Assembly (NCBI GenBank): GCA_951406725.2
Contig: OX597814.1
Span: 142,910,001 to 142,974,000, forward strand
From: Octopus vulgaris
Lineage: Eukaryota
DNA: 64,000 nucleotides
Reading direction: 5' to 3'
Part shown: piece by piece, positions 12,269 through 60,642 of the stretch
Layout: every line of letters begins with the position of its first letter
Numbering within the stretch: the first letter of the stretch is position 1
Made by a program: the position numbers and the translations under genes
The notes under the pieces: generated by a model
Seen by the model: the letters and a program-made list of their open reading frames with translations, nothing else
Told to the model about the DNA's origin: nothing
Databases searched by the model: none

Positions 12269-14516
12269 ATTTATTTCTTTTAAATTGCCATAAAGGCATT
12301 ACATAGAGGGGGACACTACAACACATGTGGGGACATATCTTTATATATAAAAGTCAAGTTGTGTGTCTGTCTCCTACGATTTAGATTCCTAACTACTCCC
12401 ACATTTTGCGGTGCAGTGTAACCAAAAGCGGGTATCTTATAGTCGTGATTTATATCGAGCCCTTCTGGGTATTAGCGCGCGTCTACGATGAGTCTACGAT
12501 TTTAAAAATAATTTACCATCATTTTTTTTCCATTTTAATGCATTTTTTCTCTATTATATAAGGGAAGTAATTCTCTAAAAATGTCTACGATGAGTCAACG
12601 ATTTAAAAAAAAAATTACCATCATTTTTTTCCATTTTTAGTGCATTTTCTTGCTATTTTTTGGGATATAACTCTCTAAAAATGCTTATATAGTTATTTCC
12701 CTTACAAATCCGAGCAACGCCGGGCGATACTGCTAGTAACAAAATAAAAATATGATGCTATGAATGACATATGAAAAACATTAAAATTAAAATATTAAAA
12801 TAATGATACATGAATGATAACTTGAGAAATGAGAATATGAAAAGTGTGTTACTCACCCCACACTGAGTAACACCACTCGCCACCTCTGAGTCCTGAGTCC
12901 TCTTTAGTCTTTGATCTAGTCTTTCGTTTACCGTTTTCCTCATCACTGAGTGACAACACTCTCTCCTCCATGTACACGTAAACTTTTTCACCTGTTGAGG
13001 GGTTTTGTAAATTTTGTGTCTGTTCTTTCTTCTTTTTTTTCCTGTAGGAAAAGGGGGTGGGTGAGTTTGGTGTCTGTATGGAGAGGGTGGGTCTGAGTGG
13101 TCTTGGGTGAGATGGAGTTGGTCTGGGGTCCCACATCACACTGACTGTTCTTCCTCTTCTTTCGTTTTTTCTTTTATTCTCTGTCATTCATCTATCCTTC
13201 CATCTATCTGTACTTCTTCCTTTTTCTTCTTCGTCTCCAGCACCGCTTCTTCTGTCGTTTTCCTCTGTGGAGGGCAGTGAGCTCTAATGTAGCCTTTTTG
13301 GCAACATTTAAAGCATCGCGGAACTCTGCCCTCTGCCCATACTCTTAATACTATTTCTCTCAACGTCACCGTCTCTGCCAAATTTTCCTGTTGCTTCGCC
13401 TCCGCTTGTATGATGATTTCCAATGTTTTTCCTTTATATCCTTCTTCCTCCGTCTCTGTGGTTTGGAGGACAGCCACCTCCTCATTACCAACGAGGACGG
13501 CTGCCGCAACCCAAGCCACTTCTATATCGGGTGGAATTCCTTCTACCCTCACCATAGAAGTCTTTCTTCCAAGGTACGTGTGTAGAAGTACTACTTCCTC
13601 CGTTCTTACTGTTGTACTCGCCAGCCTCTTTGCCTCCTCCACTGACCTAAACTGGACAACCACCGTCCCATATCCATTTCCTTTCGCTATATATGTCACT
13701 TCCTTCGAAAGCCCCTTCAATGCGTTTTCTACTTTTTCCATCTCCATCCGCTCCACTTTCCTACTCTCCATTGAGTACACCTTGTAGGTAATGATCTTCT
13801 TTTCCATATTTTCCATGACCCTTTTCGGGGATAATAACTTTACGTCACCGCCCACCTTCTGTGTCATCTTACACAGCTCCATCAGTCCAGCTATGTGAGG
13901 GAAAGAAGCAATCCCACTTGAGATAGAAGTGGCTTGGGTGACGGCATCTGTCCTTGTTTGAAGTGAGGAGAAAGTGGCTGTCCTTCAAGCCACAGAAACG
14001 GAAGAAGGAGGGTGTTTTCACCGCCACACTCGCCAGTCTCCTCGCCTCCTCTACTGTCTTAAATTGGACGACCATTGTCCCATATCTCCGTCCTTTAGTT
14101 ATGTATATTATTTCCTTTGACCGCTCCCTTAGCGCCTTTTCCGTTTCAGCTTCCACCTGCTCAGACTTTTTCCTTTTAACGAGAACACCTTATAGGTGAT
14201 CGTTTTTCTCGCCATCCGCTCCATAATTTCTTTGGTGGACGACAATCTCAACGTCACCTGCCACCTTCTGTACCATCTTCTCATACTACTTCAGACCAGC
14301 CAAGTCCAACTCCCTTCGCTTCATCTACATGGCCTCAGCAAAACTCCTTGTCTTCTCTAACACTCCGCCTATCTTTATAACCGCCCTTACCAGCTCCTCC
14401 TCTGCTGAAGACAACTCAGACTCGCTAAAGTCTGAGTACATCATCTCTAGCCTCAAAGCAACAAAAAACAAGCACAAACGACAAACCAAATGCACTCTGT
14501 GTGACGCATGAGCGGG
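12269..14516 (-). mobile_element. ORF1-only element family D, rearranged/composite
   Basis: 3' tail at 12269-12337; ORF 13184-13882 with EGRVPRCFKC knuckle remnant; a second 5' ORF1 portion at 14013-14440. Confidence 0.8.
12338..12736 (+). mobile_element. Non-autonomous Helitron-like element
   Basis: 5' TC start, 3' GC-rich hairpin plus CTAG, inserted between A and T with no TSD; the empty site GGACATA|TAACAA is visible in the paralogue at about 14590. Confidence 0.85.
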
Positions 14517-14526
14517 AGCAAGCTTC

Positions 14527-17191: not shown

Positions 17192-17226
<35 letters not shown>

Positions 17227-17404: not shown

Positions 17405-19044
17405 TTTATTTCACGATATTTGGCTATGAAAGCCGTACACAGAGGGGACAGCACAAGGTGGGGACAAAAAAAGAAAACGAATAGAAAGGATGAATTAAAT
17501 ATAATGAAAAATGAAATGAAGCCGTTCGGCTCCCACCTCCGAGTGACTTCATTGAACCTGTTAATACAAGGTTTTTCTTTAAACCTAGTTTATAACACAA
17601 TTATTAGCGACAGCTAATTATCAAATACTCCGAAGGATGTTTACATTGTGCTTCTTTAAAATATCAGAAACACTTATTTGTTTAGCATTGAGCTAGTGTC
17701 CACTTTCTTGATCCAGCACTCATAGTCATGGTTTTCTTCAAAGTCCTTTAATCTTGATATATATTCTGGGTCTGCCACTACACAGAAGGTACTCGAGTAT
17801 CCCTTTCACGCCTGATACATCCTCTTTTATAACACTGTCCCACGAGTCTATTTTGTTATACAATTCTTCATTGTCTCCACTGTACGTTATAACATAGTTT
17901 TCCAAGGGCGAGGGTGGAGAAATTTGGGGCTCCCGTGTGTTTGTGCTTGTGTTTATGTCCTGTAGGGTATGGAGGGGGCTGGTGTCTGTAGGGAGTGGTT
18001 GGGGTAGAGTGGGTATGGGTGGGAGCTTGGTGGGTGTGGGTCATCCTTTACAGCATGTGCCTTTTTCTCTTTCTTCTCTTTTCCCAGCTGTTTCCCATTC
18101 ATTATCCATCTCCTCTTCTTCGACGCTAAACTGGTCTTTATTTGTATTGCCGCCTCACTCCTTTTCCTCAACATACACGGGTAGTGGAGCACCAGCTACT
18201 TTCTCATTCTCTTGTCTCTCTTTAGCCTTCAGGACAATCCGCTCTATTGTGGTCTTTTAGGCCACATTTATAGCACCGCGGAATCCTCCCTTCCACTCTG
18301 AATTTCAGTGTTGCGTCTCCGACCGTGATTGTCTCTACCATATTTTCGATATCTTCCACGGCAACCTGTGCTACCATATCGAGGCTTTGTCCTTGCCAGT
18401 TCCTGTGGAGTGTTCTGGTGGCGTGGAGGACCACCATCTTCTCCTCCATGCCTAGCACTATGGCAGCTACCTGCCAGACTACATCCACTTCTGGGGGTAT
18501 GTCTTCTACCCTAACCCTGGAAGCACGTCTCCCAAGGTATACGGTTAGATGCACCACTTCTTTGGTTTTTAACGGTGTAACTGAGTGCAGCCTGGCAGTA
18601 GCTACCTCCCGAAACCGCACCAACACTGTCCCAAATTTTCTTCCTCTGGCTGCCCCCGAATATGTTCTGTAATTATGGCTTTCTCATTTTTCTATTCGTT
18701 TACCTCCCCATTAATCGTTTCCTTGAATTTACTTATATCCTCCAGCCTTACGTCTTCGCTTCTTTCATTCGTAACCTCTGCATAATTTTTCGTCTCCATC
18801 ACTTCATCTATCCTCTTCAAACACTCCACCATTTCTTCCTCAGTCGACACAAAGTCTGAAGGAGAATAGTTTACAATGTCTGAAGAAGAAGAATTAAAAT
18901 TCCTCACACGACGTCCCTCCATTAAACAAGAGAGAAAACGTCGCACCGCTAAGACAGCCAAAAAAAACAAACAAAAAAAACAAAAACAAAAACACGTGTG
19001 TTACTCACAAAACCAACAATTCAACTAGCAAACGTTGTACAGGA
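17405..19044 (-). mobile_element. ORF1-only element family E, degenerate
   Basis: ORF 18222-18626 with EGRIPRCYKCGLKDHNRADC; tail hairpin GGCT-TTCAT-AGCC then AATAAA. Confidence 0.85.
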
Positions 19045-26035: not shown

Positions 26036-26282
26036 GTTTTATTATTACCCACAAGGAGCGAACATAGATGGGACAATACAATCTGATGATGGGGTCAGAT
26101 ACACGATATGGGTTTTACAAAAAAGCGAATTTTAAAAATTTACAGAAAATTTACAAAAATAGACAGAAATCGAATGTTGGAACAGACCGGAAGACATTAC
26201 GGATGGAGTGGGTGCGGGTTTAGCTCGGACCCCACGAGCCCCGCCTCCCCACTGATACTTTTGGTTTCGTTTGGTTTTACAT

Positions 26283-29200
26283 TTATGTTGTATCATTCAC
26301 TCGCAACTTTCGTGCTACATCTTTCCATCGTTCTTCATACACTCTCTTAGTCAGGCATATTCTCTCCAGCCCTATCTTCCTTTTCAGGTGAAAGATGAAA
26401 TAATTCATCAAACCAGGGCCGGAGATGAACTTGCCTGACTGTAAACCTTTCATTCTTGTCTTCCATATCACCTCTTTCGCAATTGCTACTACAACGAGAA
26501 AATGAAACTTACCTTCATTCGCGAGGAAATCTGGTGGGTCAATTTTTGTAATCGACTCAGTCGACAGCTGTACTCTTCGTGTACTTGACAACAGCTGTTC
26601 GGCATAAACCCACACCTCAGACACGACCGGACAATGAACAATAGCGTGCGGGACGGTTTCCCTATCCCGCCCGCATCTTGGACATATCGGACTGTCTTGG
26701 CCACCGTGCCTTGCGAGTTTATCCCGAACAGGTAGAGCTCCTCTGTAGCATTGCCATGCCAGAGACTTCTGGAAATTGTCCAGTGTCTTCGGCTTGAACG
26801 TACGTCGGAACAGACTGGCCAGCTGATTATCATCGAGACCTAGGGTTTCCCCCAAGGTATCTTCACATTCCGCCTCTACCAACCCTCTATAGAAGAATGT
26901 GGTGGAACCCCCACCGCAGGCGTTGCCCGAGCGACGGAATAGCAGGAGAGCCTTGCGACACTCCGTGTACCAAGTACCAAGTTTCGATCTACGATTCAGC
27001 CAGGTTTCCCATCCACCGAAACTAGTGAACTTGGGAAACATCAGTTTTGCTAGCGGAGACCACAACCGTTCACCATCCAGGTAGAGCCACAGATGTCTTA
27101 ACCTCAGCGCATGTCTGCGCATCATCAGCCAAGGCATCCCTAGCCCACCCTTTAACGGTTGTTGACAGCAAGTAGAGCGTTTCACAAGTGGTTTCCCGCC
27201 CTTTCACAAGAAGTAGAAGAGCTGTCTTTCCAACTTGATCAACCACGAATCAGAGCAAGGAACGACGGAAAGGCGGTAGGTGATAACCGATGCGATAAAC
27301 ACATTGGCCACCTCCGCCCTCCCTTCCAGGGATAGCCACCGCCAAGACCAGGTCTTGGTTTCTGCAGCCACCCTGCTCGATACCTCGCCCCAATTCTTCT
27401 CTATTTGGAGGTCTGGACCGAACCAGACCCCTAGCAATTTAATCGGACCCTCCGTCCAACGTCCCACGACGCTGTCAGGAGGCATCGACTTGCCTCTCCA
27501 GGTGCCGAGTTGCAAGCCGACTGAGTTTTCGCGATTAACTTTTGCTCCTGTCACCGTCTCGTAAACCTCTATGACCTTGCCTACTTTACGTAGGTGGTCC
27601 ATTTCGGTTACGATGATGGTGATGTCATCCGCGTACGCTGACACCGATTTTCCACTACCTGGCTGTCTCGGGATGCCGCTCAGTTTTTGCAGTAATGGCT
27701 CAAGAGCCATCACATACAAAAGCGGGGAGAGCGGACACCCTTGACGAACCGAGCGCTTGATTTTGAACGGCTTCGACCCGAACTACCGAGTCGATGTTAT
27801 CGTAAATTTGGATAATCCATCTGAGGAAGCCAAGGCTCAGTCCGAACTGTGCCAGGGCAGATACCAGGTAACGATGGTCGACCCTATCAAATGCTTTAGA
27901 TTGGTCTAAATGGACCAGTGCCCCACCCTTGCCAGAATCACTATTAAACCCCTCTATAGTGTACCGCATAAGATGGAGATTATCCTGAATGGTTCTGCCA
28001 GGAACGGCACATGTCTGTGCCTCCCCGATCAGACCATCCGCGACACGCGCCAATCTTTTCGATAACACTTTGGCCAAAATCTTCAACTCTGTGTTTAGCA
28101 GAGTGATGGGCCTGAAATTATCAATGCACTCCCCCTTGTTCGGGTCCTTTCTGACGAGTGTCACTACTCCCCGGCGCACAGATCTGGGTATAAGCCCGTT
28201 CTGCTGCCAGTTCGCATAGACCTCCGCCAGTAGGTGCCCGAACAAGTCTGGCATACTCTTATATAACTCATAGGGTAGACCATCCAAACCCGGCGCCTTG
28301 CCCGCGCCGCAGTCCGCCATTGCCTCAACCACCTCCTCAGGCGTGATTGGCCCTTCACAGCCCTCCGCATCTCGCCCGGATAAGCGCGGCAGCCCGTCGA
28401 GTAGGTCCGTAAAGGCCCTCCTCCTATCCAGCCCGCCGCACTCACCGAAAAGCTGAGCGAAGTGCTCATGAAAGACCTCACACATCTCCTCGGGTTCGTT
28501 TATCAACTCACCTTGTTGGTTCGTCAAAGATCGAATCGTGGCATCATTACCATGCTGAGCTTCCACCACTCGGGCCCATCTCACGGCGTTGATTCCTTCA
28601 CAACCCATATGGCGGATCCTAGCCCTGACAATGCAGCCCATGTGTTTGGCCTCGAGGTGCTGGTTTAACACCAGTCTCTTGGACGCCACCTGAGCCGCAG
28701 AGCCAGTTTTCAAGGCTTCCTCTAATTCCTTAACTAGAGTAGTTTCCCTTCTAGCCTTTCTAGCCTCTCTAGCCACTACTCCTATGCTATATCTAATTGA
28801 CTCGAACTTGATGGCTCGTTTGAGGGCGTACCACCATTTGTTATTAATGATGGTACCAGATAGTGCCCTCTGTATTATATTCCTAATCCGGTCTTTGTAC
28901 TCCTTAATCGCCAAAAGGGACGTATTAAGTTTCCAGTAACCGGATCCTCTATTTTTAACCTTATCTATGTCAAGCTTACAGGTGACCATTTTATGATCAC
29001 TGTAGCTGATCGGGTAAAACTGTGGACACTTAGCTATTTTTCTGTCTACTTTTCTAATTAGTATTCTATCTAAATATGATCTGGAAGATCCGTCGCTGTT
29101 TGACCATGTCCACAATGGAGCGTTCGGAAATTCCAGCCTATAAGGATCTGCTAGCTCAAAGCGGCTTAGCAGTTCCATGAAGCCACTGTTACCTTTTCTA

Positions 29201-29561
29201 TCTGAACGCGAGCCAACACAATCTACATCCGCTTTGCAAATTGTGTTATAGTCTCCTAGCACAACTAATGAATGCGAAGTACCAAGAAAGTTTTCTAGTT
29301 CACGAAAATAATCACTTTGCCCTGTACTGTTGGGTGCGTAAATTGCAACCAGTCTGATAACTTTACCGTTACTGAACGTCAAATCCATGACGACCAGCCT
29401 ACCTTCTGGATCTGCAAAAATTAACTTTTTCTCAGAAACCCGGTTTCTGTAGCAACAATAACATCTAAATTACGCGACCTGATATCATGCAGGAAGCGAC
29501 CTTGCTTCCAGCCTGCTCCCAGGCCGCGCACATTCAAACAACCAACATAAATGCAATCCAT
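26283..29561 (-). pseudogene. ORF2: APE endonuclease, reverse transcriptase, C-terminal zinc finger
   Basis: MDCIYVGCLNVRGL start at 29561; AIYAPN, LGDYN, LDRIL, SDH, YWKLN; KAPGLDG, FRPITLLN, DQSKAFDRVDH, QGCPLSP, YADD; CPRCG..ETVPHAIVHC; split into frames 27700-29388, 27204-27719 and 26283-27185. Confidence 0.93.
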
Positions 29562-29599
29562 TACTTACCTTTATATCAGTGGTTCGGTTTTTTCTTTTT

Positions 29600-30961
29600 C
29601 TTCTTTGTTTATCTCTTTTTCTGGGCCTCGTGAGGGGGTCTGACGTAGGCCCTCGAATATATATGGGGATGTTAAATCCATTCTGAGCGGGCCTACGTCA
29701 TGAAAGAATTCGGACTTTATCCGCCCGTAATCCTTCCGGCCTATTCTGTAAACTATATAGTCATTCTTTTTCCTATTTTTTCCACTTTGGCCATAGCTGC
29801 CAACACGTTCCCGAGTCTGTTGTTTGATGCCTTAACGGCCATATATGAATTCATCGATTCTCTTTTCTTCTTTTGGATCACTCTGGGAGGGGTGGTTTCC
29901 GTTTTTCTTTTTTTTCTGGTGATTTTTGACCACCCCTCCTCATTGCTCTTTTTTTCCTCTGCCGCTGGTTCTGCTGCCTCTGTCACCTCCACACCTTCAG
30001 TCGTCCCTTCTGGGCCGCCCGGCGCTGCTTCTGGTGACACTTCATCTTCTTTTTCACCTGGCTGAGGTGCTTCCTGCGGTTTGGGTTGGGGTTGGCATTC
30101 CGCCCTTACATGACCCTTCTTGCCGCAGCCGAAGCACCTCGGCTTTCTGCCCTCTACGAAAACTTATTCTATCGTCTTCACTTATTTTTAGGGTTTCTGG
30201 AATCTCCTCCAGTGTTTGAATTTCTGCCTGAATGGCTATTACTATCCGCTGCTCTTTCCAGAATTCCTCCTCCTCTACTGTGGCCTGGAGGATGTTTATT
30301 TTTTCCTCCAGGCCTACCATGACTGCTGCCACCAGACATTCGGCATCTGCCTCTGGCGGAATGTTATTCATCGTGATTTTCGATGTTCTTTTTCCTCTAT
30401 ACAAGGGGAGGAGAACAATGTTCTCCACTTTTATTGGCTCCATCGACAGTTTTTTTGCTATCTCCTCTGTTGTGAAACGTACCTCTACTGTGCCGTATCT
30501 CTTTCCTCTGTTGATGTATGTGATCTTCTCCATTAATGGTTTTAAACAATTCTCGATTTTTTTTCCTCAATTTTTTGTATCATTTTGGTTGTCGTATTAA
30601 AGGTCTTATAGATTATTCTTCTTTTTTCGATTTCCTCATGTTTTTGGGCGTTTGAGACCACTGTCACTTCCGTGCCCTCTTTTGTAACACAGTCCGCATA
30701 TTTCTTTAAGTCTTCTACGTTTATTTTTTTGATTTTCTTACCAGCTACTTCTGAGAATTTTTTCGCTGGTGCTGGTGCTGGAGCAGGGGTTTCCTTTTTC
30801 TTTGGCGCCACCGCCTCTTTTTTCTTTGGCGACACCGCCTCTTTTTTCTTTGGCGACACCGCCTCTTTTTTCTTTGGCGACACCGCCTCTTTTTTCTTTG
30901 GCGACACCGCCGGAGATTCTTCTTCACTAGTCACGGGAGAATATGAGATGGGGGATTCCAT
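29600..30961 (-). pseudogene. LINE ORF1, frameshifted
   Basis: ORFs 30542-30961, 30054-30533 and 29753-30040; RGKRYGTVEVRF and IPPE motifs; knuckle in a shifted frame at about 30100-30150. Confidence 0.85.
30796..30912 (-). repeat. 24-bp coding minisatellite (AVSPKKKE repeated 4-5 times)
   Basis: TTTTTTCTTTGGCGACACCGCCTC repeated on the + strand. Confidence 0.95.
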
Positions 30962-31339
30962 CTCGAACAACAGGCTTAACAAGCCCTTGGTAAATCCAAG
31001 ATAAAGGATATTTTTCCCCCACGGAGGGGGGAACACCACCACGAAGTCCTCGCACGAAGGCTGACTTCAACAGTTGTACAGCAATAAACAAAGACAATTA
31101 GACACACAGAAAATTATAACGTAGAAAATATACACTAAGGAAAATTGTAATAACTTACTACACACGCGATTTGCGTTCCGCCATGTGATTTCTTTATTAC
31201 CCACTAAGGGGCTACGAAGAATGGCGGACATAACAAAACATGGGGACATAGAACATTATAATTAAACTTTATGAAAATGAATTGTTAAACGAAAAAAATG
31301 ATAAAATGAAAGCGATACCAACGGCCCCGTCCGTCAGCA

Positions 31340-32758: not shown

Positions 32759-33073
32759 TTCCTTCTGTCTGACAGACCGAGAACGGCCGCCAAAATAGAA
32801 AAAGTGTAACGCGCTGAACGAGCGAAACGCGAAACCGCGTCAACGCCGTTCAGAACCTCCACAACAACAACAACGCTTCTTGTTCTTTTTTACCGAATTT
32901 CAGGAGCCGAAAAAAACACGTATTTCTTTATTACCCACTAAGGGGCTACGAAGAATGGCGGACATAACAAAACATGGGGACATAGAACATTATAATTAAA
33001 CTATATGAACATGAAGTGTTAAACGAAAAAAATGATAAAATGAAAGCGATACCAACGGCCCCGTCCGTCAGCA

Positions 33074-41271: not shown

Positions 41272-41616
41272 AGTCGCCTCCGGCCGAGAAACGGCCTCCC
41301 GAACCGAAAAAGTGTAACGCGCAGAACCAGTGAGACGCGAAACCGCATTAACTATGTTCAAAATTTTACACCAACAACCATTCACTTTTTGTTCTTTTTT
41401 CTTTTTACCGAATTTCACAGAGAGCAAAAACCACAGAGCCGAAAAAACCACGTGATTTTTTATTACCCACAAGGGGCCAACGAAGAGGGGGACATTACAA
41501 GACATGGGGACATGGAACATCACAATTACATATATATGAGCAAAATGGAATATGAAAATGATATATGAGAGCGATACCGACGGCCCCATCCGCCAGCATC
41601 ACTTATCTGTCCTTCT

Positions 41617-42943
41617 TCACCCATTTTCAATTAGTATTCCTGTTTTAACCATCACAACATTCGTTTTTCTTTTAGCCCTCTCTATCCATTCATCTTTCAT
41701 TTCCACTGTCTTCCAACACACACCCTCTTCCTCTAACCTTGTCGCCAATATACCCGTATCATCACCATCCACAGCCGTGTAGCTCCAATCTTCGTGTTCG
41801 TACCACTTGGTTAACACCAGTTTTTTAACGTTTTGTACGTCTCTCCCATGTATAACAAATAAAAAATGGGTCTTGGGACTTTCTTTGCTCTGTGTGTCTG
41901 TTTTTATTCTTCTTGTAGGCGGGGAGTGGGTGGAATTACTGTTTGCATGGGAAGGATGGGACTCCAAGGGTATGGGTGGTGTCGGGGTGGGTTGGGGCTT
42001 CGCACAGTTTTTCTTTTTCCTTCTTTTTCTCTTTGTTCCCGCTTCTTTCCACTCTTGTTGCATCTCCTCTTCTTCTGTCGTTTCCTTCTCTGTTTGTTTC
42101 TGTTTATTTTCTTCCTCTCCCGAGGCTTCCTCAACGCTTTCCTTTTCTTTTTCCTTTGGTGGGGGAGGGCAGTAGGCTCTTATGTGACCCCTTTGGCCAC
42201 ACTTGTAGCACCTGGGCGCCCTACCCTCCACCCACACTCTCATAATAATATTTCCAGTCTTTATGCTGTCCGTAATCTTCTCTATAACATCCGCCTCCGT
42301 TTGAATGTTCATAACCAGTGTGGCACCTCTCACGCCTTCATACTTCATACTGGCGTGGAGGATGTCCACCTTATCCTCATTTCCTTTTATAACCGCAGCC
42401 GTTATTACTTCGCCCTCTAGGTGTGGAGGTATTCCCTCCACCCTAATTCTAGTTGTCCGCCTATTCAGATACGAGGGTAACAAGTAAATCTTTTCTGTAC
42501 TCACCACCTTGGCTGCTACATTCCTGGCTGCTTTTTCACTTTTAAATTGCACCGTTATGGTTCCGTATTGTAATCCTTTCGTCATGTACACAATTTCCTC
42601 TCCCGTCTGCTTAAGAGCCTCTTCAATTGCTTCCATGTTAATTACTTCCATCTTTCTACCTCCATTCATAAATACTTTATATTTAATGGTTCTACGATGG
42701 AACCAGTCTCCGCACCCTACTGGATGCAGCAGCTCAACTTCACCGTTCTCGTCCTCCTTCACAAATTCCTGGAGGCCCGCCAACTTAGCCAAGTCTATCT
42801 CTTTCCGTTGACTTCTTCGTTACACCTGCGTAGGTGCCTTCCATCTTTTTCACCGCCAACTCCTCCTCAGATGTCGATACTTCCGTCGAAATTTCAGAGT
42901 AAATTCTCCCTTCCATCTCCTCCGCTTGATGGAGGCGGCTCAT
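41617..42943 (-). pseudogene. ORF1 family B unit 4, 2-nt deletion in a (CT)n run
   Basis: Frameshift near 42800. Confidence 0.8.
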
Positions 42944-43289
42944 AGTCGCCTCCGGCCGAGAAACGGCCTCCCGAACCGAAAAAGTGTAACGCGCAGAACC
43001 AGTGAGACGCGAAACCGCATTAACTATGTTCAAAATTTTACACCAACAACCATTCACTTTTTGTTCTTTTTTCTTTTTACCGAATTTCACAGAGAGCAAA
43101 AACCACAGAGCCGAAAAAACCACGTGATTTTTTATTACCCACAAGGGGCCAACGAAGAGGGGGACATTACAAGACATGGGGACATGGAACATCACAATTA
43201 CATATATATGAGCAAAATGGAATATGAAAAATGATATATGAGAGCGATACCGACGGCCCCATCCGCCAGCATCACTTATCTGTCCTTCT

Positions 43290-44616
43290 TCACCCATTTT
43301 CAATTAGTATTCCTGTTTCACCTATCACAACATTCGTTTTTCTTTTAGCCCTCTCTATCCATTCATCTTTCATTTTCACTGACTTCCAACACACCCTCTT
43401 CCTCTAACCTTGTCGCCAATATACCCGTATCATCACTATCCACAGCCGTGTAGCTCCAATCTTCGTGTTCGTACCACTTGGTTAACACCAGTTTTTTAAC
43501 GTTTTGTATGTCTTTCCCATGTATAACAAATAAAAAATGGGTCTTGGGACTTTCTTTGCTCTGTGTGTCTGTTTTTATTTTTCTTGTAGGCGGGGAGTGG
43601 GTGGAATTACTGTTTGCAGGGGAAGGATGGGACTCCAAGGGTATGGGTGGTGTCGGGGTGGGTTGGGGCTTCGCACAGTTTTTCTTTTTCCTTCTTTTTC
43701 TCTTTGTTCCCGCTTCTTTCCACTCTTGTTGCATCTCCTCTTCTTCTGTCGTTTCCTTCTCTGTTTGTTTCTGTTTATTTTCTTCATCTCCCGAGGCTTC
43801 CTCAACGCTTTCCTTTTCTTTTTCCTTTGGTGGGGGAGGGCAGTAGGCTCTTATGTGACCCCTTTGGCCACACTTGTAGCACCTGGGCGCCCTACCCTCC
43901 ACCCACACTCTCATAATAATATTTCCAGTCTTTATGCTGTCCGTAATCTTCTCTATAACATCCGCCTCCGTTTGAATGTTCATAACCAGTGTGGCACCTC
44001 TCACGCCTTCATACTTCATACTGGCGTGGAGGATGTCCACCTTATCCTCATTTCCTTTTATAACCGCAGCCGTTATTACTTCGCCCTCTAGGTGTGGAGG
44101 TATTCCCTCCACCCTAATTCTAGTTGTCCGCCTATTCAGATACGAGGGTAACAAGTAAATCTTTTCTGTACTCACCACCTTGGCTGCTACATTCCTGGCT
44201 GCTTTTTCACTTTTAAATTGCACCGTTATGGTTCCGTATTGTAATCCTTTCGTCATGTACACAATTTCCTCTCCCGTCTGCTTAAGAGCCTCTTCAATTG
44301 CTTCCATGTTAATTACTTCCATCTTTCTACCTCCATTCATAAATACTTTATATTTAATGGTTCTACGATGGAACCAGTCTCCGCACCCTACTGGATGCAG
44401 CAGCTCAACTTCACCGTTCTCGTCCTCCTTCACAAATTCCTGGAGGCCCGCCAACTTAGCCAAGTCTATCTCTCTTTCCGTTGACTTCTTCGTTACACCT
44501 GCGTAGGTGCCTTCCATCTTTTTCACCGCCAACTCCTCCTCAGATGTCGATACTTCCGTCGAAATTTCAGAGTAAATTCTCCCTTCCATCTCCTCCGCTT
44601 GATGGAGGCGGCTCAT
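43290..44616 (-). pseudogene. ORF1 family B unit 5, late frameshift
   Basis: 2-nt loss in an (AC)n run near 43390. Confidence 0.8.
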
Positions 44617-44961
44617 AGTCGCCTCCGGCCGAGAAACGGCCTCCCGAACCGAAAAAGTGTAACGCGCAGAACCAGCGAGACGCGAAACCTCATCAACTAT
44701 GTTCAAAATTTTACACCAACAACCATTCACTTTTTGTTCTTTTTTCTTTTTACCGAATTTCACAGAGAGCAAAAAACACAGAGCCGAAAAAACCACGTGA
44801 TTTTTTATTACCCACAAGGGGCCAACGAAGAGGGGGACATTACAAGACATGGGGACATGGAACATCACAATTACATATATATGAGCAAAATGGAATATGA
44901 AAATGATATATGAGAGCGATACCGACGGCCCCATCCGCCAGCATCACTTATCTGTCCTTCT

Positions 44962-46290
44962 TCACCCATTTTCAATTAGTATTCCTGTTTCACCTATCAC
45001 AACATTCGTTTTTCTTTTAGCCCTCTCTATCCATTCATCTTTCATTTTCACTGACTTCCAACACACACCCTCTTCCTCTAACCTTGTCGCCAATATACCC
45101 GTATCATCACTATCCACAGCCGTGTAGCTCCAATCTTCGTGTTCGTACCACTTGGTTAACACCAGTTTTTTAACGTTTTGTATGTCTTTCCCTTGTATAA
45201 CACATAAAAAATGGGTCTTGGGACTTTCTTTGCTCTGTGTGTCTGTTTTTGTTTTTCTTGTAGGCGGGGAGTGGGTGGAATCACTGTTTGCAGGGGAAGG
45301 ATGGGACTCCAAGGGTATGGGTGGTGTCGGGGTGGGTTGGGGTTTCGCACAGTTTTTCTTTTTCTTTCTCTTTCTCTTTGTTCCCACTTCTTTCCACTCT
45401 TGTTGCATCTCCTCTTCTTCTGTCGTTTCCTTCTCTGTTTGTTTCTGTTTATTTTCTTCCTCTCCTGAGGCTTCCTCAACTCTTTCCTTTTCTTTTTCCT
45501 TTGGTGGGGGAGGGCAGTAGGCTCTTATGTGACCCCTTTGGCCACACTTGTAGCACCTGGGCGCCCTACCCTCCACCCACACTCTCATAATAATATTTCC
45601 AGTTTTTATGCTGTCCGTAATCCTCTCTATAACATCCGCCTCCGCTTGAACGTTCATAACTAGTGTGGCACCTCTCACGCCTTCATACTTCATAATGGCG
45701 TGGAGGATGTCCACTTTATCTTCATTTCCTTTTATAACCGCAGCCGTTATTAATTCGCCCTCTAGGTGTGGAGGTATTCCCTCCACCCTAATTCTAGTTG
45801 TCCGCCTATTCAGATACGAGGGTAACAAGTAAATCTTTTCTGTACTCACCACCTTGGCTGCTACATTCCTGGCTGCTTTTTCGCTTTTAAATTGCACCGT
45901 TATCGTTCCGTATTGTAATCCTTTTGTCATGTACACAATTTCCTCTCCTGTCTGCTTGAGAGCCTCTTCAATTGCTTCCATGTTGATTACTTCCATCTTT
46001 CTACCTCCATTCATAAATACTTTATATTTAATGGTTCTACGATGGAACCAGTCTCCGCGCCCTACTGGATGCAGCAGCTCGACTTCACCGTTCTCGTCCT
46101 CCTTCACAAACTCCTGGAGGCCCGCCAACTTAGCCAAGTCTATCTCTCTTTCCGTTGACTTCTTCGTTACACCTGCGTAGGTGCCTTCCATCTTTTTCAC
46201 CGCCAACTCCTCCTCAGATGTCGATACTTCCGTCGAAATTTCAGAGTAAATTCTCCCTTCCATCTCCTCCGCTTGATGGAGGCGGCTCAT
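44962..46290 (-). CDS. ORF1 family B unit 6 (442 aa, diverged variant)
   Basis: Intact; several private substitutions. Confidence 0.85.
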   Translation of the reverse strand: MSRLHQAEEMEGRIYSEISTEVSTSEEELAVKKMEGTYAGVTKKSTEREIDLAKLAGLQEFVKEDENGEVELLHPVGRGDWFHRRTIKYKVFMNGGRKMEVINMEAIEEALKQTGEEIVYMTKGLQYGTITVQFKSEKAARNVAAKVVSTEKIYLLPSYLNRRTTRIRVEGIPPHLEGELITAAVIKGNEDKVDILHAIMKYEGVRGATLVMNVQAEADVIERITDSIKTGNIIMRVWVEGRAPRCYKCGQRGHIRAYCPPPPKEKEKERVEEASGEEENKQKQTEKETTEEEEMQQEWKEVGTKRKRKKKKNCAKPQPTPTPPIPLESHPSPANSDSTHSPPTRKTKTDTQSKESPKTHFLCVIQGKDIQNVKKLVLTKWYEHEDWSYTAVDSDDTGILATRLEEEGVCWKSVKMKDEWIERAKRKTNVVIGETGILIENG

Positions 46291-46812
46291 AGTCGCCTCC
46301 GGCCGAGAAACGGCCTCCCGAACCGAAAAAGTGTAACGCGCAGAACCAGTGAGACGCGAAACCGCATCAACTATGTTCAAAATTTTACAACAACAACCAT
46401 TCACTTTTTGTTCTTTTTTCTTTTTACCGAATTCCACAGAGAGCAAAAAACACAGAGCCGAAAAAAACACGATTTTTTTTTTTTTTTTTTTTTTTATTAC
46501 CCACAAGGGGCCACGAAGAGGGGGACATTACAAGACGGGACATGGGGTACATAAAGTAAAAATAAAATATGAAGTAAAAGATGAATTTATATGTAATGAG
46601 ATGGAACGGCTTACGAACCCCCAACTCGCAGTTCCGTTTAAAATACAATTATACATTTCATATATTCCAGTTCAAAATACAATTTTACAGTTACATATAT
46701 TCCAGTTCACAGTACAATAATTTTACAATTTTACATGTTAACATTACATATATTCCTGTTCAAAAACACAACTTTACATCAAATAATTTTACAAGTAACA
46801 ATTCTAATTCTT

Positions 46813-48145
46813 TTACATTAGACACTCGTCCGTCATATAATCCAATAGGTCCGTTTGATCTATTACATCTGGTAATTTATCATACCGTACATAATGCATT
46901 ATATGCATAGCATGATATATCTTTTTTAATTTTGTGTATGTCTCCTTGTCTATAATGACGCCTTTTACATCTTCACCATACAGTTTTGGGTTCACCTTCA
47001 CCCTGACCAACCCTTTCTTACCTACAAGTCTCTTTTCCACTTCTGTATTCTTGATATACATCACAACTGCCTTCAAGTTTTTTCCTGTAGGCCTTCTTCC
47101 ATATTTACACGATTCCAATTGTTCGTTCACTCTTGTCTCCCATTCTTGTTCAAACTCTGTCCTTGGTCGCTCTCTCACCTTTTCTTTTACTTCCTGTTCT
47201 TTTTTCTCTTCTCTCTCTTCTGCTATCTTGCTTTTTTGATTTTTTCTTTTTTATATCTTTCGGTGGTGATTCCACCCTTGATCTCTTCTTGTCTTCTGTT
47301 TTTTCCTCTTCTGCACTTGCTCGTTCTTCCTCATTTAACTGCTCCTCCATTTGTGTTTCCTCCGCTTTCGCTTCCTCCACACACGCTTCTTTACACTCCT
47401 CTATCACAACCTCTGGTGCTTTTGTTTTTTCTCGCGGGCACACATCCTTCATGTGGCCCCTCGATTTACAGTTATAGCAAATTGGGGGTCTTCCCTCTAC
47501 CACAACTCGGAGCCGTGTTTCGTCAGGGTAGACCAACTCCTCCGGGATGTTGTACAGGTCTCGCACGGTTATGTGTGCCAGAACCTGCACCGTATATCCC
47601 CACCACTTCACCTCTGCTGACTTCTCCACCTTCAGTACCTCCACATCATCCTTGCAGTTAAACAGCACTGCTGCCAGCAACCTTTCCATATTAAATTCGG
47701 GTGAGATTCTATTGATTCTCATCCTCACTGCTCTCCTTCCGCAGTAACTTGGTAGCAAAGTCCACTTATCCGATTTCAAAATTCTTGTAGCGTTCTTTTT
47801 TGCCTCCTCTTCTGTTTTAAAATACACCACTACCGTGGCATACTTCCTTCCTCTTTTAAAAAATGCTGGTTCACCCTCAATTTCCTTCAGACACCTTTCC
47901 ACTTCTTCCATTTCCGCTACTTCAATCTTCTTCGACTCCACGCACCACGTCCTGTACGTTATAGTACGCTTCTCTGCACTGCTTTCCTCCTCCTCGGACG
48001 GTGTGACTATCACACAGTCACCCTCCCTCTTTAAACTGTCGAAATACTTCTGTAAAGTCTTCTGTTCGACCATCACCTCCTCCATTTCCAGTTCACCGGC
48101 AACCAGGCCTCTGCCTGCCGCTCGCGCGTAAGTCTGCTCTTGCAT
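46813..48145 (-). pseudogene. ORF1 family C, one frameshift in an A-rich tract
   Basis: TYARAA, RGRKYATVVVYF, CYNCKSRGHMKDVC; the unit has a true poly(A) tail (T run at 46473-46495). Confidence 0.85.
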
Positions 48146-48436
48146 TTTCAAGAAAAAATTATTCCACGTCCTCCAACGAACTCGAACTCACAACCTCTTT
48201 ACTCGAAATAAACACACCAGAATAAACACACCAGAATAACTCAAAAAAAACACGGGAGCCGAAAAAAACACGTGATTTTTTATTACCCACAAGGGGCCAA
48301 CGAAGAGGGGGACATTACAAGACATGGGGACATGGAACATCACAATTACATATATATGAGCAAAATGGAATATGAAAATGATATATGAGAGCGATACCGA
48401 CGGCCCCATCCGCCAGCATCACTTATCTGTCCTTCT

Positions 48437-49765
48437 TCACCCATTTTCAATTAGTATTCCTGTTTTAACCATCACAACATTCGTTTTTCTTTTAGCCCTC
48501 TCTATCCATTCATCTTTCATTTCCACTGTCTTCCAACACACACCCTCTTCCTCTAACCTTGTCGCCAATATACCCGTATCATCACCATCCACAGCCGTGT
48601 AGCTCCAATCTTCGTGTTCGTACCACTTGGTTAACACCAGTTTTTTAACGTTTTGTACGTCTCTCCCATGTATAACAAATAAAAAATGGGTCTTGGGACT
48701 TTCTTTGCTCTGTGTGTCTGTTTTTATTCTTCTTGTAGGCGGGGAGTGGGTGGAATTACTGTTTGCATGGGAAGGATGGGACTCCAAGGGTATGGGTGGT
48801 GTCGGGGTGGGTTGGGGCTTCGCACAGTTTTTCTTTTTCCTTCTTTTTCTCTTTGTTCCCGCTTCTTTCCACTCTTGTTGCATCTCCTCTTCTTCTGTCG
48901 TTTCCTTCTCTGTTTGTTTCTGTTTATTTTCTTCCTCTCCCGAGGCTTCCTCAACGCTTTCCTTTTCTTTTTCCTTTGGTGGGGGAGGGCAGTAGGCTCT
49001 TATGTGACCCCTTTGGCCACACTTGTAGCACCTGGGCGCCCTACCCTCCACCCACACTCTCATAATAATATTTCCAGTCTTTATGCTGTCCGTAATCTTC
49101 TCTATAACATCCGCCTCCGTTTGAACGTTCATAACTAGTGTGGCACCTCTCACGCCTTCATACTTCATAATGGCGTGGAGGATGTCCACTTTATCTTCAT
49201 TTCCTTTTATAACCGCAGCCGTTATTAATTCGCCCTCTAGGTGTGGAGGTATTCCCTCCACCCTAATTCTAGTTGTCCGCCTATTCAGATACGAGGGTAA
49301 CAAGTAAATCTTTTCTGTACTCACCACCTTGGCTGCTACATTCCTGGCTGCTTTTTCGCTTTTAAATTGCACCGTTATCGTTCCGTATTGTAATTCTTTT
49401 GTCATGTACACAATTTCCTCTCCTGTCTGCTTGAGAGCCTCTTCAATTGCTTCCATGTTGATTACTTCCATCTTTCTACCTCCATTCATAAATACTTTAT
49501 ATTTAATGGTTCTACGATGGAACCAGTCTCCGCACCCTACTGGATGCAGCAGCTCAACTTCACCGTTCTCGTCCTCCTTCACAAATTCCTGGAGGCCCGC
49601 CAACTTAGCCAAGTCTATCTCTCTTTCCGTTGACTTCTTCGTTACACCTGCGTAGGTGCCTTCCATCTTTTTCACCGCCAACTCCTCCTCAGATGTCGAT
49701 ACTTCCGTCGAAATTTCAGAGTAAATTCTCCCTTCCATCTCCTCCGCTTGATGGAGGCGGCTCAT
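48437..49765 (-). CDS. ORF1 family B unit 7 (442 aa)
   Basis: Intact; mosaic of variants. Confidence 0.85.
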   Translation of the reverse strand: MSRLHQAEEMEGRIYSEISTEVSTSEEELAVKKMEGTYAGVTKKSTEREIDLAKLAGLQEFVKEDENGEVELLHPVGCGDWFHRRTIKYKVFMNGGRKMEVINMEAIEEALKQTGEEIVYMTKELQYGTITVQFKSEKAARNVAAKVVSTEKIYLLPSYLNRRTTRIRVEGIPPHLEGELITAAVIKGNEDKVDILHAIMKYEGVRGATLVMNVQTEADVIEKITDSIKTGNIIMRVWVEGRAPRCYKCGQRGHIRAYCPPPPKEKEKESVEEASGEEENKQKQTEKETTEEEEMQQEWKEAGTKRKRRKKKNCAKPQPTPTPPIPLESHPSHANSNSTHSPPTRRIKTDTQSKESPKTHFLFVIHGRDVQNVKKLVLTKWYEHEDWSYTAVDGDDTGILATRLEEEGVCWKTVEMKDEWIERAKRKTNVVMVKTGILIENG

Positions 49766-50095
49766 AGTCGCCTCCGGCCGAGAAACGGCCTCCCGAACCG
49801 AAAAAGTGTAACGCGCAGAACCAGTGAGACGCGAAACCTCATCAACTATGTTCAAAATTTTACACCAACAACCATTCACTTTTTGTTCTTTTTTCTTTTT
49901 ACCGAATTTCACAGAGAGCAAAAAACACAGAGCCGAAAAAAACACGTGATTTTTTATTACCCACAAGGGGCCAACGAAGAGGGGGACATTACAAAACATG
50001 GGGACATAGAACATTATAATTAAACTTTATGAACATGAATTGTTAAACGAAAAATGATAAAATGAAAGTGATACCAACGGCCCCGTCCGTCAGCA

Positions 50096-51511
50096 TCACT
50101 TACCTGTCCTTTGTTTTTCATAGTCACTTGAATGTTCTTTGTCAATACGAATAAATTCCATATCCATTCTTACTCCGAAATACTCATCCATATTTTCCAC
50201 GAATTCATCGCTCATTCTTATATCTTTCACCTCCCAATTCTCCCTTTCACACCTCCCCATAAACTCACCTATGTTCTTCTTTTCCATCACAGCATACCTA
50301 GTCTCTCCAACATCATACCATTTATACTCTTCCATTAGACTTTTAACTTCTTTCTGTTCAGTCATAGTACAAATGTACGGCCTGGGTTCGATTTCAATCT
50401 CTTGTGTATGTGTATTCTTTTTTTTTCTTTTGTTTTCTTGTTGGGGGGAGCGGGTGGGTTCAATGTCTGCATGGATAGGGTGGGACTCAGAGGGTGTGGG
50501 TGGTTTTGGGGTAGATTGGAGTTCCATATTATTTTCTTTTCCATGAATTCTTCTCTTCCTCTTACTTCCAGCTTCCTTCCATTTCTGTGTATTCTCTTCC
50601 TCTGTTTCCTTCTCCTCTGGTTTCTGCTTCTCTCTCTCTGGTTCGGAATCCGTTTCTTTCCCTGGGGGAGGGCAGAAGGCTCTTATGTGACCCCTCAGGC
50701 CACACTTGTAACAACGTGGAGCCCTGCCCTCCACCCACACTCTCATGATCACTTCTCCCAGTCTGATGCTTTCCGTCAGGTCCACCAGTACCTCGGTCTC
50801 TGCCTGTACGTTCAGCTCCACTGTTACGCCTCTCCAGCCCTCGGACTTAACCGAGGCATGGAGAATATCCACTTCGTCCTCGTGGCCGCTGATCACAGCC
50901 GCCACAATCCATTCTGCCTCCACGTTTGGTGGCACTCCCTCCACCCTTATTCGTGTAATCCTCCTGTTTAAATACGTAGGTAACAGTGTTACCTTTTCCG
51001 ACTTCACCGCCTTCGCTGCCATCTTCCTCGCTGCAGATTCACTTTTAAAGTGCACAACTACGGTCCCGTACTTGGATCCTCGAGTCAGAAAATTTATTTC
51101 CTCCTCAGTTCTTCGCAGGGCTTCCTCTATCCATTCCATGGATACAACTTCTACCCTCTTCCTTTCGTTTGCGCACACCCTGTAAACAATGGTCCTCTTA
51201 TCATACCATTCTTTTCTCCTGGGTGTCGGTGATAGTTCCACCTCACCGCTTTCCTTTTTCATGTATTTCTGGTAACTTGGCAACTTGGCCATGTCGACCC
51301 CTTTCTCTTCCGCCTTCTTGGTTACACCGGCATAGGTATAACTCAGCTTGTCTTCCAATTTCCTTGCTGCCATTTCTAGCTCCTTCTCAGACATAGGCAA
51401 GTCTGATAAAGACTCAAAAACTCCAGCCTTTTCCTCCATCAGCTTCACTGCAATTGCCTGTTCCAGTTCCTCATCTGTCGTGGACAAGTCTGTTAGAGAC
51501 TCATAGTCCAT
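50096..51511 (-). CDS. ORF1 family A unit 4 (471 aa)
   Basis: Open frame; homologous to A1. Confidence 0.87.
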   Translation of the reverse strand: MDYESLTDLSTTDEELEQAIAVKLMEEKAGVFESLSDLPMSEKELEMAARKLEDKLSYTYAGVTKKAEEKGVDMAKLPSYQKYMKKESGEVELSPTPRRKEWYDKRTIVYRVCANERKRVEVVSMEWIEEALRRTEEEINFLTRGSKYGTVVVHFKSESAARKMAAKAVKSEKVTLLPTYLNRRITRIRVEGVPPNVEAEWIVAAVISGHEDEVDILHASVKSEGWRGVTVELNVQAETEVLVDLTESIRLGEVIMRVWVEGRAPRCYKCGLRGHIRAFCPPPGKETDSEPEREKQKPEEKETEEENTQKWKEAGSKRKRRIHGKENNMELQSTPKPPTPSESHPIHADIEPTRSPQQENKRKKKNTHTQEIEIEPRPYICTMTEQKEVKSLMEEYKWYDVGETRYAVMEKKNIGEFMGRCERENWEVKDIRMSDEFVENMDEYFGVRMDMEFIRIDKEHSSDYEKQRTGK

Positions 51512-51675
51512 CTCCTTCTGTCTGACAGACCGAAAACGGCCGCCAAAACAGAAAAAGTGTAACGCGCTGAACGAGCGAAACGCGAAACCGCGTCAACGCC
51601 GTTCAGAATTTCCACAACAACAACAACGCTTTTTGTTCTTTTTTACCGAATTTTCAGGAGCCGAAAAAAACACGT

Positions 51676-55393: not shown

Positions 55394-55491
<98 letters not shown>

Positions 55492-56430: not shown

Positions 56431-56456
56431 TTTTGGGTTATGCAAGTGTTCCATTA

Positions 56457-56876: not shown

Positions 56877-57004
56877 TATTCGTCTAAATTTTCTGAAACA
56901 CTTGTTCGCTCCTCCGAAAAATTCTGCAGAACAAATTCCAATATAGTTGGAATCTATACCATCTGTAAGATATCTGTAGAAAATTTCACGGAAAATATCC
57001 AGTT

Positions 57005-57890: not shown

Positions 57891-57949
<59 letters not shown>

Positions 57950-60444
57950 GCATACATGCATACATACATACGTAAAAATGGGTCATTACATGTCAAGAAG
58001 TATAAAGATAAGAAAGATTGCAAATGCCTTTTTCAGACATTACGTTATGATCCGTTAGATCGTTATCTATTATCTTATTCCTGTATATGCATATGGTCTC
58101 AGACTAAATTCAAATTTTAATAACTCCTCTTAAACATTATTTAAATATATTATATTTTTGTCATGGCACCACCCGTCACTCGTCCTAGATGGAAGAAGTG
58201 GCGGGTAGAGGTTTGTGGAAAATTATTCTCAAACCGGAAACTAGGCCCGAATGCTTGCAACTGAGTGAAATCTGCTAAAAGCACTCAAGGATTGGTGTAA
58301 AGCCGAGTGATGAATTAAGTTTTCCGTCATAAAACCGAACAAAAGACTTATTTAGAAATACATTTTATGACCATGGACATGAAGAGTTAACTGAAGATTT
58401 TTCATTGTTGCAAAGATGTCTAAGAGAGTTTTACTGATAAATCGCCAGAAAATCACTGATCGCTTGTTCAGTCCAAGAATGAAAACCAGTATCGACTCCG
58501 GTTTGATTTGAACATGGAAACGCTTGCATTATAATAATAAAGCAATAATGAATCGATAATAAATTAAATATAGGTTTCTAAATTTGTATTAAACTAAACT
58601 ACCCGTGACCCGTTGGGTCACTGACGGTTCAGGTTATAAAACATTAAAGCTGATTTCAACCTTGTATTGAAATGAAAGTTGATTTTATGATGGTTCAGTT
58701 AAATATTTCAATTCGTTCGTGTTAGCATAGGTTTGGTTTACAAGTTCATGTTTCAGGTTTTACTGATTATTTACAACATCTAATAGAAATAAAACTTCCG
58801 GGATAAACCTGAACTCCTGTAACAGCACTTACTTATGGTATATGTGCACACGTCTACAAAAAGAGCAAAAGGAATGGTCATATAACGAAAACAAGATTAG
58901 TGGAAACAATTTTCACAGTATTATATATTCCCATTTCAGGGTTCTGTTACTTTCGGAGTATTTTCTCATTATGTGCCGTTTTAACTATTTATGAAGGTAC
59001 CCCCCCACACCAAAAAAACCCCGCGTATCTCGGGAATCCATGGCCCGATTTACGCGAAACTTGTTTTATTCCGTTTGTATTCACATTTCAGGGATACCTT
59101 TAATTTCAAAATATTTTCCCATTATGCGCCAGTTTGGCGGTATCAAATTACAGACAAGCACGCAAGCAAGTAAGCAATGACAGTTTTAGTAGAATACAGA
59201 TTATATTTTATTATGTTTACCATATTGAGCAAATGAAAAAAGATAATCCTGACAAGAAAAAAGGTTGACATATTTCCATGAGTCTCTCGAGTAAATGTCA
59301 ATGAAGGTCATTCAATTTCCTGTTAGTGTTCATTTTCTTTTCTTTATCACTTAGTCAAAGGAAGAAACACAGCGCCCACAATAGGCTTTCTGAGTCGCTC
59401 GAAACTTTTGGGAAGTTATCGTCCGATCGGACCTTTTGTCTGACTTCCTATAACCCAGTGTACTCTTATAAAGGTAGCTAAGGGCCTCCATACAGTTTCT
59501 CTCAGCCAAAATTTTACTCAGCTTTAATTGACCTGAGGCTATAGTAAAAGGCACTTGATGTGATACAGAAGGGGAATGAACTTAAAACCCACGTAATTGC
59601 AAACCGAACTTGGAAATCATACAGCTATGTCTGTTAGCTATGTTGGTGACGTCTTTATTAACAAACTCTAGAACGGCAAGCTGCCAGACTGGTTAACAGC
59701 ATTTATTTCGGTTATTTATGTTCTGAATTTAAATCCCGCAGATGTCATCTTAACCTTTCACTCTTTTGAGGTCGATAAAATAAGTAGCAGTTGAATACTG
59801 AGGTCGTTTTAATCGACTTACTTCTTCCCTCAAACTAGTTGACCTTGTGGAAAAATTAGAAAGAATTTATTAACTACTTCTTCACAGAGATAACTTTAGA
59901 TCTAGATATCCCTAAATAGATGGGGATATTCACGACTGGAATGACTTTGATCATAGATCTGCTCAGTTAGCGCTGAGATAAAACAACATTAAGAAGCTCT
60001 AACATTATAAGCAACGAGTTAACTACTTCGATGATATTTTAAAATGGCCTGATATTTACAAAACAGATTTACATTATTTTAATCTTTTTAATATGTTGTC
60101 TGTTTTCAAAAACTGCTTTCGGTTTTAAATGATCAGGTGTTCCACGAGAAAACATTGTTAACGGCATATGTAATGTGAATTAATATTTTGAAAGTTGAAT
60201 ATTATTTTAGAAGTTTAATACTCCACTTTGTCAAAATACTGTTAAAAAACCTATATCTATAATCAAATTAAATGCTGAATATGAAATTCAAATTCAGATA
60301 CGTTGAACATTTGGCTCGTCAAACGTTATGTAAACTTCAAATAAAGCATGCAACACAGGAAAAATCAGCATGAGTCATCAAACGTAACATTTTAATTCCA
60401 GTGGGTGTATTTTAAAGAACTGATCTTCAGGACCCCTTAAAAGG

Positions 60445-60642
60445 TCACAGTGGTGGATAGGGGCTTGCGGGGCCAAAAGCAGAGCCCGTTTCCCACTTCA
60501 TTGTTTTTTGTAATTTGTATTATTATTTCATCCGATTTTTAGTATCATTAATTTTTATTCGATTTATCATATTCTTATGTTTTTCATCTTGGCCCCTGAT
60601 TTTTGTATTGTCCCCTCTGTGTTTGGCCCCCTGTTAATAATA
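60445..60642 (+). mobile_element. 5'-truncated Tx1 LINE 3' UTR
   Basis: Similar to the 26040-26255 UTR (CAGTGG..GGGGCT..GGGG..CCCAC; TGTATTGTCCC..GGCCCC..TAATAATA). Confidence 0.65.

Follow-up and report, generated by a model that had tools for sequence, protein, structure and literature searches.

The question raised by this locus is whether the 3' untranslated regions (UTRs) of its retrotransposons of the non-LTR type, which lack long terminal repeats, share a long-range RNA pseudoknot and, if so, what such a structure would do for them. The window, meaning here the whole 64,000-nucleotide (nt) stretch of the Octopus vulgaris genome that was analysed (assembly GCA_951406725.2, contig OX597814.1, positions 142,910,001 to 142,974,000 of the forward strand, numbered below from its first letter), contains a nest of such elements: a Tx1-like long interspersed nuclear element (LINE), hereafter LINE1, units that encode only the first open reading frame (ORF1), and an older LINE, LINE2. 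From the letters of the window, a first-pass annotation had proposed that LINE and ORF1-only families share a hairpin whose G-rich loop pairs with a C-rich box downstream, the two changing together between families. Comparison of sequences within the window and genome-wide confirms this loop/box pair as a real, selected RNA structure.

The loop/box pair in the window

The layout is constant: the stop codon is followed by a hairpin with a G-rich loop, a U-rich and G-poor linker (53% U, 9% G), the box, a hinge, a terminal hairpin and an A-rich end. Loop and box are complementary over 5-8 bp, with a loop-to-box gap of 54-143 nt. The instances found are as follows, together with LINE2.

26207..26253, minus strand: LINE1 hairpin P1, with its G-rich apical loop at 26228-26234
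26090..26096, minus strand: LINE1 box, 133 nt downstream of the loop and complementary to it over 7 bp
26036..26075, minus strand: LINE1 terminal module, with a conserved hinge box, a small hairpin (26047-26059) and an A-rich end, common to a short interspersed nuclear element (SINE)
38155..38254, minus strand: family B, 14-bp hairpin, loop 38235-38240, box 38155-38160
31240..31345, minus strand: family A, loop 31325-31330, box 31240-31245, one C-A mismatch
46543..46640, minus strand: family C, loop at about 46618-46624, box at about 46543-46548, 5-bp helix
14582..14745, minus strand: family D, intact copy, loop 14723-14730, box 14582-14589, 8-bp helix
12325..12880, minus strand: family D, second copy, loop 12856-12863, box 12325-12332, with an insert of about 400 nt that extends the spacer
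17456..17556, minus strand: family E, loop 17532-17538, box 17456-17462, 8 bp in the medoid L233
3064..5239, plus strand: family F, young and ORF1-only, situated within a SINE head, with a target duplication of about 17 bp, loop 5111-5116, box 5186-5191
60440..60640, plus strand: 5'-truncated copy of another LINE lineage (the 'relic'), loop 60469-60476, box 60589-60596, 8-bp helix
19047..20430, minus strand: old LINE2 copy without G-loop or C-box, its tail nearest the SINE tail, with an 8-nt target-complementary box at 19129-19136

The family B loop recurs in seven units between 36.5 and 48.4 kb, further family A units lie at about 33.06, 34.81 and 50.08 kb, and the family D helix ends in a G-U pair. 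The insert in the family D spacer (12340-12740) holds an internal 102-bp repeat.

For the six pairs to which the first-pass annotation had assigned coordinates (LINE1, B, D, E, the relic and F), the letters match as stated; those of A, C and a further D copy were likewise located in the window, and A is the weaker case that it was said to be, owing to its single C-A mismatch. The label 'relic' does not hold: the copy belongs to another ORF2-bearing LINE lineage, and the view that it is a short element whose 5' end is fixed was rejected because its relatives continue into a divergent ORF2. No loop/box structure was seen in the old LINE at 19.0-20.4 kb.

When the hairpins were folded alone, five of eight proved better than shuffles (z from -2.2 to -4.9), namely those of A (-4.9), B (-3.6, with the 14-bp stem claimed for it reproduced), both D copies (-3.5 and -4.2) and E (-2.2). 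Those of LINE1, the relic and F fold as drawn, with z around -1, no better than shuffles.

Covariation across the genome

The same layout recurs genome-wide in many further Tx1-like LINE and ORF1-only families. A tail pattern built to exclude the SINE gave 959 matches which, together with DNA and protein searches, yielded 56 tail clusters; 14 were dropped (false matches, SINEs, duplicates and copies truncated below the hairpin) and nine that the pattern had missed were added, and 40 of the resulting 51 were tested, leaving out eight LINE2 rows, two degenerate ones without recognisable apex and one without a C run. In the swap test applied to them, the 3'-most G of the loop is aligned to the 5'-most C of the box, the four core pairs are ignored, and Watson-Crick pairs are counted at the flanks, with cognate or with permuted boxes. 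Cognate boxes formed 83 of 200 flank pairs against 62.4±5.7 for permuted ones (p≈2.5e-4), 36/70 against 22.4±3.4 among 14 lineage representatives (p≈8e-5), 23/55 against 15.6 among 11 multi-copy medoids (p=0.009), and 62/160 against 49.9 in the 32 rows lying beyond the families of the first-pass annotation (p=0.016, or 0.046 over all eight flank positions); these values are not strict probabilities, because the apices were hand-pinned and many rows are kin, and the flank positions were picked after the sequences had been seen. This flank test is the only out-of-sample statistic of the analysis.

When 22 LINE UTRs were aligned by MAFFT without guidance, the result pointed in the same direction. 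The pair immediately 3' of the G run reads C-G in seven rows, U-A in six and U-G in one, and is broken in six; the covariation score of the whole structure was reached by 3 of 500 shuffles and by none of the slid controls, which remove relatedness only in part. A quick ORF2 tree places the C-G form in one supported clade only, so that the switch to it was probably a single event, and the other variants sit on separate branches. In the ORF1-only set (18 UTRs), 86% of the helix is paired, and three of its six pairs show changes on both sides. The swap test and these compensatory pairs thus support the earlier claim of a conserved, covarying RNA element whose complementarity exceeds chance. Two other approaches were abandoned: a second long helix, between the region upstream of the hairpin and the hinge, was weak in RNAalifold (-2.6 kcal/mol, mostly G-U, a two-sided change in one of ten pairs), and the picking of hairpins by blind minimum-energy folding was too noisy as a test where copies are old or where a local fold of the family competes.

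Selection on the loop and the box

Among 29 distinct LINE1 copies, variants present in at least three copies occupy 37 of 107 linker sites and one of 44 stem sites, and none of the 14 sites of loop and box; subfamily variants likewise fall on none of the seven loop sites. As judged from these copies, purifying selection is shown to act on loop and box. At eight further LINE-family loci, whose ORF2 is 73-77% identical and four of which have open frames of more than 1100 aa, loop and box are kept and the hinge box is replaced. In one of these families, a G-C pair has become G-U while the helix was extended to 8 bp; L168, examined afterwards, has a 6-bp helix. Sequencing runs of four organisms hold the LINE as contigs, and none of the variants listed for them (40 of 60, hence a weak indication) lies in loop or box. 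Among the data sets listed as containing the LINE there was no RNA set, which does not bear on expression. Two metagenome scans for other species did not find the element.

Which elements carry the pair

A pattern for the tail gave 32,922 matches in the genome (control: 0), and all 30 sampled loci proved to be a tRNA-type SINE, which we take to be the OR-type tRNA SINE. This SINE has its last ~55 nt in common with the LINEs and carries no such hairpin or box at any of the 30 loci, as judged by eye. Within it (L031-L060), the upstream part is nearest LINE2 and the terminal hairpin nearest LINE1. A G-loop/C-box version was also sought in LINE2 and rejected, the conserved stretch of this lineage fitting other hairpins without consistent covariation. 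A further lineage, LINE4 (L286-L315, L331-L333), is young, with an ORF2 of 1145 aa; its insertions lie in (TTA)n, it builds tandem arrays of 5.9 kb, and its 3' UTR is of another kind, with several hairpins.

Families D, E and F share with LINE2 one exact insertion point in the tRNA-like head of a second abundant SINE, with a duplication of 15-18 bp, and they keep the pseudoknot despite inserting at the target of a lineage that is devoid of it. In the window, this insertion point is seen at 3024-3063 and 5240-5260, and also at 12.3, 14.5, 17.4 and 19.05 kb. Genome-wide, a pattern for the junction, which favours F and LINE2 tails, gave 263 matches, and 30 sampled ones comprised 19 F copies, four ORF2-bearing elements (all LINE2-type) and seven short tails. 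In an ORF1 tree (22 of 28 rows used), the ORF1-only families fall into more than one group, and D, E and F stand apart from the ORF1 of LINE2, support being modest and the branch of F long; the pair is thus present across ORF1-only families of several origins. Since the SINE and LINE2 lack the pair and D, E and F keep it, these data, together with the tree, indicate that the pseudoknot follows the ORF1-coding body and neither the tail nor the target.

Proposed role and alternative explanations

We model loop and box as a long-loop H-type pseudoknot that would act as an accessory clamp in the assembly of the mRNA or of its ribonucleoprotein, the terminal ~55 nt serving as the minimal ORF2 signal; this is our preferred reading, although we give it slightly less than an even chance. 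The pair would form in vivo, probably once the top base pair of the hairpin opens, and would loop out the linker and set the post-stop hairpin beside the terminal module. On a translated RNA polymerase II transcript, the 3' end could thereby be protected, or ORF1p be loaded beside the ORF2 docking site, while a short RNA polymerase III SINE would have no need for the clamp. The terminal module is read as the minimal signal by analogy with stringent SINE/LINE pairs (PMC3747384). The earlier proposal of an ORF2 recognition signal allowing trans-mobilisation is weakened as regards a minimal signal, given the SINE loci without the pair and its retention by D, E and F at LINE2's target; an accessory role in ORF2 docking may still apply, given the R2 precedent described below.

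Several observations weigh against the proposed clamp, or against the strength of the structure on which it would rest. LINE2 and LINE4 are protein-coding too, yet have no clear version of the pair, and a conserved 7-8 bp match of LINE4, between G/U-rich and A/C-rich segments about 100 nt apart, folds locally in the energy model. The enzyme that serves the SINE could itself belong to a pseudoknot-less lineage. The constraint contrasts in A, C8, D and E go in the same direction as in LINE1 but are weak, and for the 18 ORF1-only UTRs a control slid by three columns scores 0.170 against 0.197. Blind folding picks out the cognate loop in no more than about half of the multi-copy families, the G run being drawn into a local alternative with the 3' arm. 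Finally, the core is nearly always a G run facing a C run, so that part of the conservation may be sequence-specific.

The close rival, to which we give somewhat less weight, is that the pseudoknot itself is bound by ORF2p to start target-primed reverse transcription, the ORF1-only elements keeping it to recruit ORF2p in trans. The order of the parts is the same as in the pseudoknot-hinge-stem of A-clade R2 elements (10.1101/2024.11.11.623112; PMC12222951), the pair outlasts the hinge box in intact LINEs, and R2Bm lacks the pseudoknot that R2Tg needs (PMC12222951), so that pseudoknot-less sister lineages are no bar to such a function. However, the SINE does without the pseudoknot, the R2 module is compact (~65 nt) where 54-143 variable nt are found here, and D, E and F use the target of LINE2, a choice held to be mainly that of the endonuclease (PMC4494074), yet LINE2 RNA is without the structure. 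A role as a folding safeguard, in which the box would soak up the G-rich loop and leave the C-rich hinge and any target-pairing segment single-stranded, appears unlikely: the linker composition would suit it, and in A, B, D and E the box resembles a duplicate of the hinge just downstream, but the pair is still there in LINEs whose hinge box has been replaced, and loss of the G-loop would have been a cheaper fix, yet the loop is retained.

Less probable still is a block to 5'-3' exonucleases or a self-cleaving ribozyme releasing a short 3' RNA, the latter having been among the earlier suggestions. By eye, the relic and the loci L144, L157, L170 and L208 start roughly 5-20 nt upstream of the hairpin, but none of 19 family F copies sampled by their tail starts at the hairpin, other short copies begin in the arm or in the linker, no invariant unpaired residues are seen beyond the G/C core, and an Rfam scan of the window gave 74 matches at E up to 1, none reaching the gathering score and none on these UTRs, so that known ribozymes and cis-elements (HDV-like, hammerhead, twister, xrRNA) are not recognised there. 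The ribozyme is therefore not supported, fixed ends near the structure being absent as well. Chance, with G-rich hairpin loops meeting C runs in a duplicated tail, is what we hold least probable of all; it would fit the homopolymer core, the related rows and the hand-pinned apices, but the flank-only test leaves the core out, two-sided changes appear in unguided alignments, and loop and box are constrained.

Two further comparisons concern the linker. The ENE type of poly(A) triple helix consists of a U-rich internal loop flanked by helices, together with a poly(A) tail; the linker is U-rich but long and variable, and copies mostly end in a short A-rich motif, with longer A runs in family C. 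UCAU is enriched in the linkers of the 40 UTRs (112 against 76±6 in shuffles, the rows being related), which resembles the YCAY clusters of Nova/Pasilla.

A target-complementary segment in the tail

The LINE2 tail contains, about 70 nt before its 3' end, an 8-nt box (19129-19136, minus strand) whose reverse complement equals the bases with which the target duplication begins. At one position of this box two variants occur, and in 20 of 20 copies the variant in the box fits that in the 3' flank (nine of one form and 11 of the other); in an overlapping set of re-read loci, the box was found in 19 of 20 and agrees with the flank in all 19. Among seven candidate 5' halves of the duplication, which were picked by pattern, six agree and one has a third base. 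The state of the box changes three times on a quick tree in which some rows are unsure. In family F, a target-matching segment (5193-5203, plus strand) takes the place of the hinge, and the matching variant is present in 23 of 23 copies of the flank classes shown (28 copies in all). The loci concerned are L121-L140, L338-L361 and L366-L385. Matches of 7-8 bp to the usual flanks were seen by eye in family A and in LINE3; in D and E, no tail match to the flanks was seen.

The long-loop pseudoknot might then be a scaffold presenting a tail segment that base-pairs with the top strand of the target and helps to pick the insertion site, a possibility suggested by these sequence agreements that we regard as improbable, though less so than the folding safeguard. 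Pairing of read-through RNA or the age of SINE subfamilies would explain the agreement between box and target in LINE2 and F without any guiding by DNA. If the scaffold were real, it would mean RNA-assisted target selection in an L1/Tx1-type element, and a box that steers insertion would make these elements natural, partly reprogrammable site-specific integrators.

The retrotransposon nest of the window

The remaining features place these tails in their context.

26283..31188, minus strand: LINE1 Tx1-like body, with ORF1 and ORF2 (APE endonuclease, reverse transcriptase and zf-RVT), both broken here
31340..51600, minus strand: ORF1-only array of A, B and C, head-to-tail units with a period of 1.67-1.75 kb, upstream of LINE1

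ORF2 frames of 1132 aa are open at many LINE1 copies elsewhere in the genome. LINE1 is young, with 92-100% identity over 150 scored matches, and so are family A (96-100%, 150 scored) and family F (98-100%, 40 scored). The assignment of LINE1 as Tx1-like is supported by its APE endonuclease, reverse transcriptase, C-terminal zinc domain and zinc-knuckle ORF1, the knuckle scoring slightly below the Pfam cut-off, and by the target preference of these elements; one distant match carries the name TX1, and among named homologues those of Octopus sinensis and Argonauta hians come nearest. The ORF1-only elements are HAL1-like, ORF1 being directly followed by the 3' UTR without ORF2 and the whole moving as a unit; family F has a target duplication.

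Within the array, units of A, B, C and C8 adjoin, head to tail, either the 5' start of LINE1 (31175-31188) or that of one another, with junctions from 31.2 to 51.6 kb, and 7-8 bases of the altered hinge of family A (31220-31230) match the LINE1 5' start. The commonest 3' flank of LINE1 (25740-26030, minus strand) is a repeat with weak similarity to ORF1 (28-31%), that is, a decayed relative either used as target or carried along. A strong motif resembling a 5' splice site lies just before the hairpin in family A (~31345, minus strand) and in LINE2 (19320, minus strand), overlapping the stop codon region, and no matching acceptor is conserved. A further reverse transcriptase fragment (Pfam RVT_1; 53413-53862, plus strand) is not matched by Tx1-like queries.

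Comparison with known systems

Mammalian L1 relies on poly(A) (PMC3747384), and the choice of RNA by L1-clade proteins outside mammals is poorly known. For O. vulgaris, a recent repeat annotation counts 13 recently active L1-Tx1 families, in a main text that contains neither 'pseudoknot' nor 'UTR' (PMC13282606), and the available text of PMC4758252 names no partner for octopus SINEs. A literature search for a Tx1 pseudoknot, for ORF1-only derivatives and for complementarity between UTR and target gave no match, most subscription papers and Repbase entries lying outside its scope.

The octopus elements have recognisable counterparts. Target-specific LINEs of the Tx1 clade (Tx1L, Keno, Kibi, Koshi, Tx1-Mar), whose choice of target is ascribed mostly to the endonuclease (PMC4494074), share with them an APE-RT-zinc-finger ORF2, a zinc-knuckle ORF1, insertion into repeats and a target common to non-autonomous partners; a tail segment complementary to the target goes unmentioned in the available text of that paper. 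HAL1 (half-L1) elements are ORF1-only, non-autonomous L1 derivatives of several origins (PMC5753468), and the octopus families likewise encode ORF1 alone and do not form one group, but they differ in being Tx1-like and target-biased, in forming tandem arrays and in keeping a structured 3' UTR. Stringent LINE tails shared with SINEs are known from UnaL2, SART1, maize ZmSINE/L1 and Chlamydomonas SINEX-3_CR/L1-1_CR (PMC3747384), and the terminal ~55 nt with a small stem-loop, common to the octopus LINEs and the tRNA-type SINE, corresponds to them. These tails have a single terminal stem-loop, the word 'pseudoknot' having no occurrence in the text available, whereas in octopus the long-range pair is found upstream of what LINEs and SINE share, and the SINE does not have it.

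A likeness in layout is also seen with the A-clade R2 elements R2Tg and R2Pm, whose pseudoknot-hinge-stem is bound by protein and in which insertion fell when the pseudoknot was broken and recovered with compensatory mutations (10.1101/2024.11.11.623112; PMC12222951). Both systems, as far as the available R2 descriptions go, combine a pseudoknot, a conserved single-stranded hinge and a small 3' stem-loop at the RNA end, the structure being kept while the sequence diverges. R2, however, is of the restriction-like endonuclease (RLE) type, with a single ORF and a compact protein-binding module of ~65 nt, whereas the octopus elements are APE-type, two-ORF and Tx1-like, with a loop of 54-143 nt that is known here from sequence, and no homology is claimed. 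What the octopus adds is a natural experiment in a Tx1-like lineage that is young and active: the pseudoknot is present in intact LINEs, missing from their sister LINEs, retained by the ORF1-only parasites and dropped by a SINE, and compensatory mutants, as used for R2, can separate ORF2 docking from roles at the level of the mRNA.

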